This document shows positions 9,114 through 23,374 of a stretch of 64,000 nucleotides of DNA, piece after piece. The position numbers and the translations under genes are program-made. The stretch's first letter is position 1. The number at the start of each line of letters is the position of its first letter. The notes beneath the pieces are model-generated. The model saw only the letters and a list, made by a program, of their open reading frames with translations. It did not search any database and was not told where the DNA came from. This DNA comes from Callorhinchus milii. Its lineage: Eukaryota. The stretch covers positions 111,354,001-111,418,000 of the forward strand of contig NW_024704742.1 in NCBI RefSeq assembly GCF_018977255.1. The letters are read 5' to 3'.

Positions 9114-9265
9114 CCTACAAGTTTTTGCTGCCAACTGTACAACTTCTGGCCAAAGGAACATCTTGTGAACTTTTCCACAAGACAACACATAGCTCACTAA
9201 GATGTTTTTCAGTAACCCCTGGATTTGCCAAAAAAAATGGAGATCATTCAGTGGATAAGGAAAAG
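9114..9265 (+). CDS. CLPX: CLPX-like exon (N-terminal region, ...[16 protein letters not shown]...)
   Basis: ttttttag acceptor and AAG|gtataa donor; phase 1 to 0; resembles PLRSFTETPAYFASKDG of vertebrate CLPX exon 2. Confidence 0.75.
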
Positions 9266-21200: not shown

Positions 21201-23374
21201 TTAAGAGAATTTACTTCACACAAAGGATAGTGAGATTATGGAACTCGCTGACTGAATCTATGGTTGAATCAGATAATAATAATAATACTTGCATTTGATA
21301 TAATGCCTTATTGCGTCATCGAGATGCCTCAAAGCGCTTCATAGGATATACTGTGAAGTGGGTTGACATGTGTATTTTGGGGGAAAAACACAGCAGTCAA
21401 TTTGCACACAGCAATGTCCCACAACCATGGAGCGAGAACCAATTTTTTTTGGGTGGGGGCTTTGTTGGCCAGGACACCAGGAGAAACTCCCTTCTCTTTT
21501 CAAATAGTGCATGGGATTTTCGCCAGAACAGTTAGACAGGACCTTAGTTTAATGTCTCCTCCAAAGGACGGCACTTCCAACAATACAAAACACCCCCAAG
21601 GAAGAGTGATCCCAACACAATCGAGCTTCTCTCAGTAATTCAGTCACTATACCAGAAATTGATCTGAAACTTTGTGCGGCTGGATTCACATCAATCCTTG
21701 GCATTGTGCATTGACCCACTAATATTTTGTATCGCAACACCATCTACAAAGCCTGTTATTTTTAAAAATAAACAAGCTAAGTCCAAAGCCACTGAGCTCA
21801 TCCTCTGCTTAAATCCCTGACTACGCTCCATGAACTGATAAAATAATTTTTAAGTCAGTCCATTGCTTTATTTCTAAAATACATTTTTTCCTTCACATGT
21901 TTAATCTGTTTAGGCTTTAGTTCTTCTCTCCTGAGGTTGTTGGTTCATGCTGGGCTATGGTTCCATGGGTGTTGTTTGCCCTCCAGTACCTCACCCAAAT
22001 CACGATTTAGATGGCGAGTGTTGGCAGACTATTCTGAGGCTGTTCCTATCTGAACCCTAACATCCTGAATCTACCTCTTTATAGTGGTAATGCGGGAGAA
22101 GAAAGAATCTTAGAAGTCTTTTAACTTTCTTTGTCAAAGATGCAATTTCTGATTTTATTTCAGGAACAATTGCTGCTAGAGCCTATGTATGAAGTCCCTC
22201 ATTCCAATATTATTGGCGTTCATATAGATAAGGAAGTTGTCAATGGCAAAAAGGGACCAGAGTATATTCGGTAAGTTTTTATCATCATATCATCATACCA
22301 GCACCACAGCCATGATCAGTCATCACAAACAACTTGCGACTATCCTCCCTGGTGGTGAGGGAAGTGTGGGGCTGGGGGGGAGGTGGTAAGCGGAGTTAGG
22401 CGAAGTCTCCTTGGAGCTGAATTGGCTCCAAGGTTACAAGCTTGGAAATTGAATCTCAGAATTGAGTCAATCCACTGTGGAGGTCTCAGTAGCCCAGTTC
22501 CTGAGCCAGGCGGGTCTGCAGGTCTCCACGGCACTGCTGATGACATAGCAACCAGCTTGGCTCATCAGCAGGAGTTGTAGGAGGAGACAGCTCTCTGGGG
22601 GCAGGGATTCTTTTCACTTCTGTTAATTGCACAAGCCAAAGTCCTAATGGTTAGGGTATTCCTAGCTGGACAAGCAGGTGGAAGCTTACGAGACACTTGG
22701 TGGTCAAACTACAGCACACTTCATTCCAAAAAAATGGAATTACCATGTATAAGTAACATACATGGAACTCAGTCTAGGTTGGATACTCTTTTTGCATGAC
22801 ACCCAACTGAACCCCAAAAAAGCCATCCCTGAATTGTGAAAGACTTTAATGAATATTGTTATATAATGTATATGCATATCATATATTGTTTGAAAATACA
22901 CATTGATTTTGATTGGTAATATTAATAGCTTCACATAATGCAGTTATTGGCTTATATTAGGTTGTATTCCAGTGAAGAAGCCAGAAAATTCTGCATAACT
23001 TGCATAGTGAGAATTTTAGTGGAGCTGGTATTTTTCTTCACTTCTGGAACTTTGCTTTGAATCTAATCCAGACTTTAGATTAAAGAGAAAAGTCGGATTA
23101 ATGATGCACTGCATTTCTTTATGGATTGTTTTGGATACTCCTGTTTAAACAAAACCATTCAAAAATAAAAACACATAAATGTCAAAAGTAAATTACTTGT
23201 ATCTTTCTGAGCTTTAAAATTTATCCAAATGATGCCACATGTTCCTAAACTTGTTTTTATTGGGTTCTTTTTCACACAACCATGTGAAACAAATTACTAA
23301 TGACTGTTTATTGCAGGGCCCCAACAAAAGAGGATGACAATACAGTTCGGGCAGTCAGAAGCAGGGATGGATGA
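9114..23374 (+). CDS. CLPX: CLPX-like mitochondrial ATP-dependent Clp protease ATP-binding subunit (divergent paralog); 12 coding exons traced, 5' coding exon unresolved
   Basis: Exons 9114-9265, 9865-9988, 10259-10410, 11050-11215, 12658-12816, 14910-15074, 16149-16237, 17167-17331, 18475-18771, 20328-20420, 22164-22270 and 23317-23374 have AG/GT ends and join in phase (1727 nt, open to TGA 23372-23374). Motifs present: C4 zinc finger (CPKC...CNKC), Walker A GPTGSGKT, pore-1 GYVG, Walker B IVFLDEVD, pore-2 RDVGGEG, LGF ClpP-docking loop, GRFP, sensor-II GARGLR. Confidence 0.93.
9865..9988 (+). CDS. CLPX: CLPX-like exon (first CxxC: FYCPKCGS)
   Basis: ttttgacag acceptor and T|gtaagt donor; translates PGHKNG...[18 protein letters not shown]. 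Confidence 0.9.
10259..10410 (+). CDS. CLPX: CLPX-like exon (second Cxx[12 protein letters not shown])
   Basis: ttccag acceptor and CAA|gtaagt donor; lies within ORF 10225..10506. Confidence 0.93.
11050..11215 (+). CDS. CLPX: CLPX-like exon ([12 protein letters not shown]...AVYNHYKRI)
   Basis: tttcag acceptor and G|gtaagt donor; Clp[15 protein letters not shown] motif. Confidence 0.95.
11687..12002 (+). mobile_element. tRNA-derived SINE with L2-type tail
   Basis: A-box (tagctcattgg), B-box (ggttcaattcc), conserved body, (TTA)n tail. Confidence 0.9.
12658..12816 (+). CDS. CLPX: CLPX-like exon (...[14 protein letters not shown])
   Basis: ttctacag acceptor and G|gtaaaa donor; first half of Walker A. 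Not in the ORF track, translated by hand. Confidence 0.93.
13960..14865 (+). mobile_element. Older L2 3' fragment interrupted by a younger antisense L2 fragment (14411-14740)
   Basis: The + strand L2 remnant stops at ~14410 and resumes at ~14741 to its (GTT)n tail; the intervening sequence is the reverse complement of the 51140-51470 type. Confidence 0.82.
14910..15074 (+). CDS. CLPX: CLPX-like exon ([10 protein letters not shown]...[11 protein letters not shown])
   Basis: tttgtag acceptor and G|gtactt donor; within ORF 14891..15106. Confidence 0.97.
15181..15295 (-). mobile_element. CR1 LINE 3' end
   Basis: (AAGAACAT)n tail followed by ggagcaggagtaggccattcggcccctcgagcctgc. Confidence 0.8.
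16149..16237 (+). CDS. CLPX: CLPX-like exon (Walker B and pore-2 loop)
   Basis: Translates [33 protein letters not shown]|gtgagt donor. Confidence 0.97.
16895..17132 (+). mobile_element. Deu-domain SINE fragment (SacSINE1/AmnSINE1-like); related pieces at ~6070-6330, 8610-8780, 21270-21600, 31380-31640, 42290-42600, 54135-54930, 60180-60560 and 63790-63965
   Basis: ggatgttaaagatcccatggcactatt...ggagtttctcctggtgtcctggccaac matches my recollection of the Deu domain; L2-type tail. Confidence 0.7.
17167..17331 (+). CDS. CLPX: CLPX-like exon (GLLKLLEGT...SGAF...)
   Basis: atcag acceptor and AAG|gttgga donor; within ORF 17125..17358. Confidence 0.96.
17780..18370 (+). repeat. Unclassified dispersed repeat, copy A (related copies at ~22337-22730 and ~24730-25200)
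   Basis: Shared segments gctgaRYtggYtccaRgg and gtctYRgtagYccRgttSctgagYcaggcg. Confidence 0.7.
18475..18771 (+). CDS. CLPX: CLPX-like exon (YLGFG loop...[11 protein letters not shown])
   Basis: ttcag acceptor and AAG|gtatgg donor; 99 codons. Confidence 0.96.
19727..20034 (-). mobile_element. tRNA-derived SINE
   Basis: Reverse-complement copy of the 11687-12002 family. Confidence 0.9.
20328..20420 (+). CDS. CLPX: CLPX-like exon (CDFTVTE...[11 protein letters not shown])
   Basis: ttccag acceptor and TTG|gtatgt donor; sensor II motif. Confidence 0.95.
20790..21270 (+). mobile_element. CR1 LINE reverse transcriptase / 3' fragment, internally deleted
   Basis: LLFTIYIND...ADDTKL and [32 protein letters not shown]. 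Confidence 0.85.
22164..22270 (+). CDS. CLPX: CLPX-like exon ([12 protein letters not shown]...PEYI)
   Basis: tttcag acceptor and CG|gtaagt donor. Confidence 0.95.
23317..23374 (+). CDS. CLPX: CLPX-like last coding exon (RAPTKEDD...; the alternative frame ends at 23418)
   Basis: ttgcag acceptor; begins R-APTKE as in vertebrate CLPX; in-frame TGA at 23372-23374; see the frameshift finding. Confidence 0.85.

Follow-up and report, generated by a model that had tools for sequence, protein, structure and literature searches.

To our knowledge, vertebrate CLPX is usually treated as a single-copy gene, with the exception of teleosts; zebrafish has two CLPX genes, clpxa and clpxb. In the available part of PMC11804671, the RKL loop of human ClpX binds phosphoserine substrates, the LGF loop is given a role in ClpP docking, and ssrA tags are not recognised by the human protein. 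In the available part of PMC2682703 (Canestro et al. 2009), human chromosomes 5 (Hsa5; MEF2C, ARRDC3, NR2F1) and 15 (Hsa15; MEF2A, ARRDC4, NR2F2) are presented as paralogons from the R1/R2 duplications, in agreement with the shared ohnolog pairs named in our preliminary description, and ALDH1A3-ogm is described as an 'ohnolog gone missing' on Hsa5. Here we describe a second, divergent CLPX gene, labelled CLPX2 in this analysis, in a 64,000-nucleotide stretch of the genome of the chimaera Callorhinchus milii (hereafter the window; contig NW_024704742.1, called C1 below).

CLPX2 is an intron-containing ClpX gene at positions 7952-23374 of the window (+), with 13 coding exons and 12 introns. Shark 'clpX-like' proteins searched against the window by tblastn gave 11 exon matches in collinear order between 9113 and 22340 (lowest E-value 1e-45), and splice-aware refinement produced a coding sequence of 1761 nt (586 codons plus TGA) with GT..AG boundaries at 12/12 introns. 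The 13 open exons confirm the phase-consistent ClpX gene that had been proposed from a first reading of the DNA. The span given at that time, 9114-23374, ends correctly on the last base of the stop codon, but starts only with coding exon 2, at its first base, so that exon 1 is missed. This exon (7952..7985, +) was recognised by its likeness to the N-termini of shark paralogs; it has an ATG at 7952 in a start context, encodes the first 11 codons of the putative presequence, and ends in a phase-1 donor (CAG/GTAATG) that fits the exon 2 acceptor. The gene is already in the annotation as "clpX-like", and our model matches a public 350-aa Callorhinchus fragment at 330/331 aligned residues; that public model is incomplete. 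Full-text literature searches for CLPX with ohnolog, elephant shark, cartilaginous fish, paralog or shark found no paper on CLPX2.

Motifs were counted in 13 paralogs (the window protein and 12 shark and ray proteins) and in 42 non-paralog sequences (canonical and invertebrate). Exons 2-4, 6-9 and 11 were assigned by tblastn, the splice model and motif counts, exon 5 by tblastn and the splice model, and exon 12 by the splice model. Exon 2 (9114..9265, +) encodes the remainder of the putative presequence and an R-x-F-S motif common to CLPX2 and canonical CLPX (RCFSV or RTFSV in 8/13 paralogs); acidic residues are absent from the N-terminus before position 31. The C4 zinc-binding domain follows, with its first CxxC (CPKCG in the window protein) in exon 3 (9865..9988, +) and its second (KCNKCQ) in exon 4 (10259..10410, +). 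The first CxxC is exact in nine of the 13 paralogs, and the region is absent from two models. The AAA+ large domain begins in exon 5 (11050..11215, +). Exon 6 (12658..12816, +) carries a divergent linker and the Walker A motif GPTGSGKT, which is finished in exon 7 (14910..15074, +) and is exact in 12/13 paralogs, including the window protein, one model being truncated. Exon 7 also holds the pore-1 loop GYVG, found in all 13 paralogs, and exon 8 (16149..16237, +) holds Walker B (FLDEVDK; DE in 13/13, window protein included) and the pore-2 loop, exact in 12 of 13 with the window protein among them.

The catalytic and docking elements continue through the second half of the gene. Exon 10 (18475..18771, +) encodes the ClpP-docking LGF loop, with KYLGFG exact in the window protein and 11/13 paralogs and LGF present in 12/13, as well as the arginine finger GR[FL]P (13/13). 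This exon matched the solved mitochondrial ClpX 9dvy at E = 4.6e-37 and E. coli ClpX at E = 2.6e-16. The small AAA+ domain in exon 11 (20328..20420, +) contains sensor-2, which reads GARGLR in 11 paralogs and has a K variant in two (GARGL[RK] in 13/13), and exon 12 (22164..22270, +) ends in phase 2 at CG/GTAAGT. Pfam scans of single exons gave only weak matches to AAA, AAA_2 and ClpB_D2-small. Judged by its motifs, CLPX2 is most likely an intact ClpX-type AAA+ unfoldase gene across chimaeras, sharks and rays. The RKL loop, encoded in exon 9 (17167..17331, +), is remodelled: NSRKLRGE is exact in 39/42 non-paralog sequences and altered in every paralog, where the equivalent is S[SP][RK][RK][YH]R.[DE] (13/13; SSRRYRVD in the window protein).

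CLPX2 is not the sole CLPX of this genome, a point that the preliminary description had marked for checking. A canonical copy lies at C26:245347-262329, beside a KBTBD13-like gene, and of four candidates scored across the 991-Mb genome two were matches, giving exactly two CLPX loci. The phases of the 12 introns are identical in the two genes (1,0,1,0,1,1,1,0,0,0,0,2). This rules out an intronless retrocopy or processed pseudogene with a poly(A) trace, as had been argued at the outset. The marked divergence outside the ATPase core claimed there is also borne out: CLPX2 is 63% identical to the canonical CLPX of the same genome over 547 aligned residues, whereas the canonical chimaera protein is 91% identical to that of shark and 86% to that of coelacanth. 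Between chimaera and sharks or rays, CLPX2 has diverged by 30-36% compared to 9% for canonical CLPX, so that it has evolved roughly three times faster, and 39 alignment columns that are conserved elsewhere carry paralog-specific changes. The canonical CLPX of chondrichthyans and bony vertebrates contains a 14-codon cassette exon, which is absent from intron 5 of the window gene, from 13/13 paralogs and from the invertebrate sequences compared.

As first described, CLPX2 lies directly upstream of MBLAC2-like exons and a centrin exon, all on the + strand. The MBLAC2-like gene (25558..28990, +) consists of two metallo-beta-lactamase ORFs (25558-26151 and 28487-28990), and its name rests on synteny and this two-exon structure. 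The best solved matches of the centrin exon (36302..36418, +) are centrins, and it is CETN3-like by position. On the other side, a motif scan identified the first coding exon of a POLR3G-like gene (2247..2399, -), head-to-head with CLPX2 and ~5.5 kb away; the next exon (L020:8781-8918) has a weak Pfam RNA_pol_3_Rpc31 match (E = 0.0081, below the cut-off). Family searches of the genome were insensitive for small exons: RNA_pol_3_Rpc31 missed the POLR3G-like gene of the window, Pfam LysM missed the C1 and C26 genes discussed below, and the sorting-nexin N-terminal family returned the C1 gene only.

Over a wider interval of 0.6 Mb, CLPX2 is flanked on C1 by a LYSMD3-like gene and a MEF2-type gene. 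The LYSMD3-like exon (C1:111340668-111341324) has a single genomic paralog, at C26:2863638-2864075 (51% identity, E = 5.6e-35), and MEF2-type MADS exons are found at C1:111928862, C26:2814163 and C21:7964945. The LYSMD-like and MEF2-type paralogs are 50 kb apart on C26, and this 7.6-Mb contig also carries canonical CLPX. Because paralogs of its flanking genes share C26 with canonical CLPX, this arrangement points to an origin of CLPX2 in the Hsa5/Hsa15 paralogon. The paralogy reaches across C1, C21 and C22 when link-module clusters and CK1-gamma genes are included. Gene order is not conserved, since canonical CLPX is 2.56 Mb from the MEF2/LYSMD pair on C26 while CLPX2 sits between the two on C1. 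One CK1-gamma gene and one link-module cluster are on C22, not C26; therefore, either the Hsa15-like region is divided between two contigs or the names are incorrect. CLPX, MBLAC2 and CETN3 are absent from one supplement file of a 2026 ohnolog database (PMC13450315), the full tables of which may list the family.

Twelve shark and ray proteins scored 816-1102 bits with the Heptranchias paralog, compared to no more than 720 bits for canonical CLPX. In the protein tree the paralogs form a clade with 100/100 support, within which the elasmobranch paralogs have the window gene as their sister (100/99); the canonical chondrichthyan sequences make up a separate clade that excludes the paralogs (98/97). 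Since the window gene clusters with these 12 proteins, the duplication is older than the split between chimaeras and sharks, which took place over 400 million years ago, and CLPX2 is not a recent lineage-specific duplicate, in line with the original proposal. In all six species for which both genes are listed, the two are on contigs that differ in length. Protein searches found no bony-vertebrate counterpart of CLPX2, so the earlier statement that it was lost in mammals is an understatement. Two apparent additions to the family were set aside: a Bombina bombina 'clpX-like' protein (P0131), considered as an amphibian paralog, turned out to be canonical CLPX in a chimeric model that contains a foreign insert, and P0136, considered as a cyclostome or cephalochordate CLPX, is a mite sequence.

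In the tree the paralogs fall among the vertebrates, and a split with 100/99 support sets this vertebrate clade apart from 5-9 invertebrate sequences. At the base of the gnathostomes there is a polytomy; the branch uniting all canonical CLPX has 68.8% support, and informative site patterns for the three possible groupings number 1, 0 and 0 and are uninformative. With 1.0-1.1 changes per site, the stem of the paralogs is very long, so long-branch effects apply, and the trees were built without lamprey, hagfish or amphioxus CLPX. Holding the paralogs together with canonical chondrichthyan CLPX gave a lnL 1.03 higher than that of the free tree, and this constraint was not rejected (AU p = 0.543). 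The protein trees thus do not separate a pre-gnathostome origin of CLPX2 from one on the cartilaginous-fish stem: they show no nesting as a recent duplicate, but leave the duplication undated relative to bony vertebrates.

We consider it probable that CLPX2 is an ohnolog from an early vertebrate whole-genome block duplication, kept in cartilaginous fishes and lost in bony vertebrates. The whole-genome-duplication origin had been suggested in the preliminary description and is supported by the paralogon evidence, the protein tree alone being neutral. The same block duplication would also have given the MEF2C/MEF2A and LYSMD3/LYSMD4 pairs, and CLPX2 would have disappeared from the POLR3G-MBLAC2 interval of bony vertebrates as an 'ohnolog gone missing' on the Hsa5 side. 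The constrained tree, being as likely as the free one, would equally fit a DNA-based duplication of CLPX alone in the chondrichthyan stem lineage, later than the divergence from bony vertebrates, with a chance landing by POLR3G/MBLAC2 followed by fast evolution; the basal polytomy and the restriction of the known paralogs to Chondrichthyes also agree with this. However, of all places in a 991-Mb genome, such a copy would need to have landed in the very 0.6-Mb interval whose flanking-gene paralogs share the contig of the parent. It would also require a secondary loss of the cassette exon and the fitting of ~1 change per site into a shorter time, and the supported canonical chondrichthyan clade excludes the paralogs, all of which makes a stem duplication unlikely. 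A duplication older than vertebrates, leaving an ancient chordate or bilaterian paralog that was lost elsewhere, is harder still to credit: a deeper node could be accommodated by the long stem and the poor resolution at the base, but the paralogs lie within the vertebrates, and the identity of CLPX2 to invertebrate ClpX is ~50%, not above that of canonical CLPX.

A different concern is whether the chimaera gene still works. Exon 13 (23317..23374, +), read from a strong acceptor, encodes a 19-codon tail and TGA, and in this reading the homologous last exon of the chimaera carries the conserved GWMKRADT tail (23365-23388) in another frame. Contigs of four sequencing runs match the assembly here, with no indel. 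The out-of-frame motif could reflect relaxed constraint on chimaera CLPX2, and it would fit a gene that is losing function in this lineage, either as an incipient unitary pseudogene or as a relic that is no longer transcribed, while the shark and ray gene still works. The public 350-aa fragment, which uses a different last exon (22441-22465) in apparent repeat sequence, would fit as well. However, only the last ~19 codons are affected, and an alternative last exon (23346..23418, +), read from a weaker acceptor at 23345/23346, would restore the tail. Furthermore, 13/13 exons are open, the splice sites and every catalytic motif are intact, and the chimaera end branch (0.40-0.48) is not longer than the path to the shark paralogs, so we regard loss of function as improbable. 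It should also be mentioned that contigs of the four runs, three of which are presumably RNA though none is on record as such, run through CLPX2 introns (e.g. 22197-22411 and 22487-22829), the joints shown being mostly repeats.

By our reading, the CLPX2 protein would be imported into mitochondria, form a ClpX-type hexamer that hydrolyses ATP, and dock on the ClpP protease via its LGF loops; we infer that the gene is expressed. It may also select other substrates than canonical CLPX, because both the RKL-loop equivalent and the surface of the zinc-binding domain are remodelled. We offer, tentatively, the possibility that cartilaginous fishes have two mitochondrial ClpXP proteases that share one ClpP and differ in substrate range, with CLPX2 as the Hsa5-side ohnolog whose RRY-type loop has been held for >400 million years. 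This would imply a different degron code or a stand-alone chaperone role, e.g. in tissue-specific control of heme synthesis. CLPX2 is still a paralog in a well-known family. It also provides a naturally occurring variant of the loop for which the reading of phosphoserine degrons was recently demonstrated in human ClpX, and could be used to test what sets the substrate choice of mitochondrial ClpXP. As a probable ohnolog, it would give the well-studied Hsa5/Hsa15 paralogon another 'ohnolog gone missing', in this case a living one.

Among described systems, CLPX2 most resembles canonical vertebrate mitochondrial CLPX (human 9dvy, 9ykx and 9p9v, and the C26 copy). The two share a domain order (putative presequence, C4 zinc-binding domain, then the large and the small AAA+ domain), 12 intron phases, Walker A and B, GYVG, pore-2, the LGF loop, the arginine finger and sensor-2. 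CLPX2 differs in its RRY-type RKL loop, in lacking the 14-codon cassette exon that is alternatively spliced in canonical CLPX, and in its acidic C-terminal tail. Bacterial ClpX (E. coli 3hws, 6po1 and others) belongs to the same family and shares the pore-1 motif and a ClpP-docking tripeptide loop, but its loops read RKH and IGF, and it lacks a mitochondrial presequence. Teleost clpxa and clpxb likewise represent a second CLPX gene in a vertebrate lineage. Unlike CLPX2, however, both belong to the teleost branch of canonical CLPX, and their RKL loop still reads NSRKLRGE or NTRKLRGE; by sequence comparison they are a later teleost-internal pair, not orthologs of CLPX2. The closest parallel in evolutionary history is ALDH1A3-ogm, which, as far as the available part of PMC2682703 describes it, belongs to the same Hsa5/Hsa15 paralogon and MEF2C/MEF2A neighbourhood and is an Hsa5-side member absent in bony vertebrates. 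In the case of CLPX, by contrast, the missing member would be one that survives in a living lineage and is open to direct study.

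The window covers C1:111354001-111418000 of a 991.5 Mb genome, and its ClpX gene (CLPX2) consists of 13 coding exons on the + strand, from 7952 to 23374. In the window alignment, shark 'clpX-like' proteins matched 11 collinear + strand blocks from 9113 to 22340, and the model was built by a splice-aware search around each block, inspection of both ends and scripted assembly. Each of the 12 introns has GT..AG ends, and the frame comprises 586 codons before a TGA. Exon 1 (7952-7985, +) contributes the ATG and 11 codons resembling shark N-termini, and ends at a phase-1 donor (CAG|GTAATG) compatible with the acceptor of exon 2. 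The span in the preliminary description, 9114-23374, agrees exactly with the model from exon 2 to the stop codon and leaves out exon 1. The CLPX2 introns are packed with very high-copy repeats (e.g. 11404-12731, 14060-15387 and 17380-18043, with further repeat-rich stretches at 19372-20035 and 20700-22027); summed contig word depths there range from thousands to >200,000 in the DNA run.

The model and P0002, a public Callorhinchus fragment of 350 aa, share 330 of 331 aligned residues. P0002 is without the first 237 residues and its terminal exons differ from our model; its last exon (22441-22465, LEIESQN) begins 170 nt past exon 12, in apparent repeat sequence. In our model, the frame from a strong acceptor at 23317 reaches a stop at 23372-23374. 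GWMKRADT, which is conserved in the CLPX2-type proteins (paralogs) of sharks and resembles the canonical tail, is encoded at 23365-23388, out of frame relative to that acceptor; splicing at a weaker one, 23345/23346, would bring it back in frame (last-exon region 23317-23418). Because contigs of four runs from two studies span the last exon without an indel, the out-of-frame tail is not an assembly slip.

The exon 10 query matched exactly two loci genome-wide (four candidates scored), the window and C26:246674-246982, the latter 69% identical to CLPX2 exon 10. By tblastn, this second locus is a canonical CLPX at C26:245347-262329 (- strand), so the genome does carry a canonical copy elsewhere. 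Its exons 1-2 match public Callorhinchus proteins labelled Xa at 100% identity and the remaining exons at 63-100%, the low values arising because HSPs overrun exon ends or span gaps. A KBTBD13-like single-exon gene (Pfam BTB and Kelch; near-certain Atlas assignment) lies ~27 kb away; human CLPX adjoins KBTBD13 at 15q22.31. The intron phases of the two Callorhinchus genes are alike (1,0,1,0,1,1,1,0,0,0,0,2). By script, 9 of the 12 introns coincide between the two genes in both aligned residue and phase; for the three N-terminal introns phases were read from translations, introns 1 and 2 lying in a poorly aligning region. With 12 introns in the phases of canonical CLPX, CLPX2 is not a retrocopy, in agreement with the preliminary description.

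Searching proteins with exon 10 gave 575 matches at E <= 0.001 among 2147 candidates. Among the best 120 of these, 'clpX-like' proteins from Callorhinchus, sharks and rays come first (69-98% identity), followed by canonical Xa proteins, some from the same species. A full-length Heptranchias paralog as query retrieved 12 shark and ray proteins (816-1102 bits) and, at 788 bits, a fused model from Lasius niger; canonical CLPX did not exceed 720 bits, and the upper score group of this search contained no bony-vertebrate protein. The two copies are on different contigs in all six species with contig data for both (Heptranchias, Carcharodon, Pristis, Cetorhinus, Amblyraja and Scyliorhinus torazame). 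One Bombina bombina 'clpX-like' protein (P0131), which forms its own 50% cluster, was rejected as a paralog; it is a chimeric model whose ends are canonical CLPX and whose AAA+ large domain has mostly given way to an unrelated, coiled-coil-like insert.

Two trees were built, a quick one of 57 proteins and a careful one of 34; for the latter, 23 rows were dropped, among them the two very long ones of Mya and Lingula. All paralogs fall in a single clade (support 100 quick; 100/100 careful) with the window gene sister to those of elasmobranchs (99; 100/99), and canonical chondrichthyan CLPX forms a clade excluding them (100; 98/97). Therefore, the duplication preceded the chimaera-elasmobranch split. 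Teleost a and b proteins fall within the teleost clade in both trees. The marked divergence already remarked upon is borne out: the window protein is 63% identical to the canonical CLPX of its own genome and 64-72% to the 12 shark and ray paralogs, compared to 91% between chimaera and shark canonical CLPX.

How much older the duplication is depends on the position of the paralog stem, which is 1.0-1.1 changes per site long and joins the unresolved base of gnathostome CLPX. Constraining the paralogs with canonical chondrichthyan CLPX gave a lnL 1.03 higher and was not rejected (p-AU = 0.543), grouping all canonical genes together is already found in the best quick tree (68.8% support), and site patterns for the three groupings number 1, 0 and 0. 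The sequences are thus compatible with duplication before or after the split from bony vertebrates. Vertebrate CLPX isoforms are known to include a 14-codon cassette exon. In canonical CLPX we found it in the C26 intron between coding exons 5 and 6 (score 67; reverse-complement locus positions 33071-33109, L003-L010 joined), and nothing similar was found in CLPX2 window intron 5 (best score 18). The motif occurs in 55 of 422 proteins compared; the 51 named carriers are canonical vertebrate CLPX from chondrichthyans and bony vertebrates, four have no source name, and no paralog or named invertebrate sequence among the 422 has it. This distribution mildly favours a CLPX2 lineage that had split off before the gnathostome crown, barring a later loss of the exon. 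In place of the cassette, P0029 and P0030, both public Callorhinchus proteins, read a different stretch, perhaps a retained intron.

Synteny, rather than the sequence trees, points to the probable origin of CLPX2. Upstream lie a LYSMD3-like gene (C1:111340668-111341324, +; a confident Atlas name lead) and a POLR3G-like gene (-; exon 1 at 2247-2399, next exon at locus L020:8781-8918, a weak RNA_pol_3_Rpc31 match, E = 0.0081, below the curated cut-off). Downstream, as had been described for MBLAC2 and CETN3, are two MBLAC2-like metallo-beta-lactamase ORFs (25558-26151 and 28487-28990, +; Pfam Lactamase_B) and then a centrin exon (36302-36418, +). The order LYSMD3-like (+), POLR3G-like (-), CLPX2 (+), MBLAC2-like (+), centrin (+) is that of human 5q14.3, in the same orientations, apart from CLPX2, which stands between POLR3G and MBLAC2. 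POLR3G-like and CLPX2 are head-to-head, with start codons ~5.5 kb apart. Just upstream of CLPX2 exon 1, 7315-7728 encodes long glycine (+) or proline (-) runs. The GC-rich, low-complexity stretch at 24941-25557, just upstream of the first MBLAC2-like exon, is open in several frames with Gly/Pro/Ser/Ala/Leu repeats and probably represents a CpG-island promoter that contains a microsatellite.

Apart from itself, the LYSMD3-like exon that lies 20 kb upstream of CLPX2 matches one place in the genome, C26:2863638-2864075 (51% identity, E = 5.6e-35). MADS exons of the MEF2 type are located on C1 (C1:111928862, 0.55 Mb beyond CLPX2 on its downstream side), on C26 (C26:2814163, 50 kb away from the LYSMD paralog) and on C21 (C21:7964945). 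Therefore, three gene families in a 0.6-Mb stretch of C1 have partners on C26, a contig of 7.6 Mb (0.77% of the genome). The paralogy is extended by link-module clusters (C1:113.41-113.53 Mb, C21:7.82-7.85 Mb, C22:0.57-0.60 Mb) and CK1-gamma C-terminal exons (C1:100.09 Mb, C21:10.36 Mb, C22:9.28 Mb). The fit is imperfect: gene orders on C1 and C26 differ, and Hsa15-like genes are split between C26 and C22. The pairing of its flanking genes with the contig of canonical CLPX supports the proposed origin of CLPX2 as a whole-genome-duplication paralog. Canestro et al. (2009, PMC2682703) describe Hsa5 (MEF2C, ARRDC3, NR2F1) and Hsa15 (MEF2A, ARRDC4, NR2F2) as R1/R2 paralogons and introduce the concept of 'ohnologs gone missing' on Hsa5, a description that fits CLPX2 as a gene retained in cartilaginous fishes.

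The window protein retains the C4 zinc-finger cysteines, Walker A, GYVG, Walker B, pore-2, LGF loop, arginine finger and sensor-2. Exon 10 matches the solved human mitochondrial ClpX at E = 4.6e-37, and the predicted presequence has an R-x-F-S motif at a position equivalent to the canonical one. At 39 alignment columns the paralogs (13 including the window protein) share a residue different from one at least 90% conserved in the others. The clearest such change is the RKL loop, NSRKLRGE in 39 of 42 canonical and invertebrate sequences and S[SP][RK][RK][YH]R.[DE] in all 13 paralogs. According to PMC11804671, this loop binds phosphoserine in human ClpX, and phosphorylated substrates are no longer recognised once its R and K have been replaced. 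Judging from its sequence, CLPX2 would function as an unfoldase whose substrate range has shifted. ClpP exons occur at C29:4110799-4112713 and C87:201050-202960 with identical bit scores and nearly equal spacing. The pair consists of assembly copies (haplotigs) or reflects a recent duplication, rather than an old second ClpP; a single ClpP type would therefore be common to both ClpX proteins.

CLPX2 is already in public annotation as 'clpX-like', and full-text literature searches found no paper treating the chondrichthyan gene. It adds a new subfamily member to a very well-known family, and differs from that family in one functional loop, which is a specific, testable difference. The zebrafish clpxa/clpxb literature concerns a pair other than CLPX2 and CLPX.
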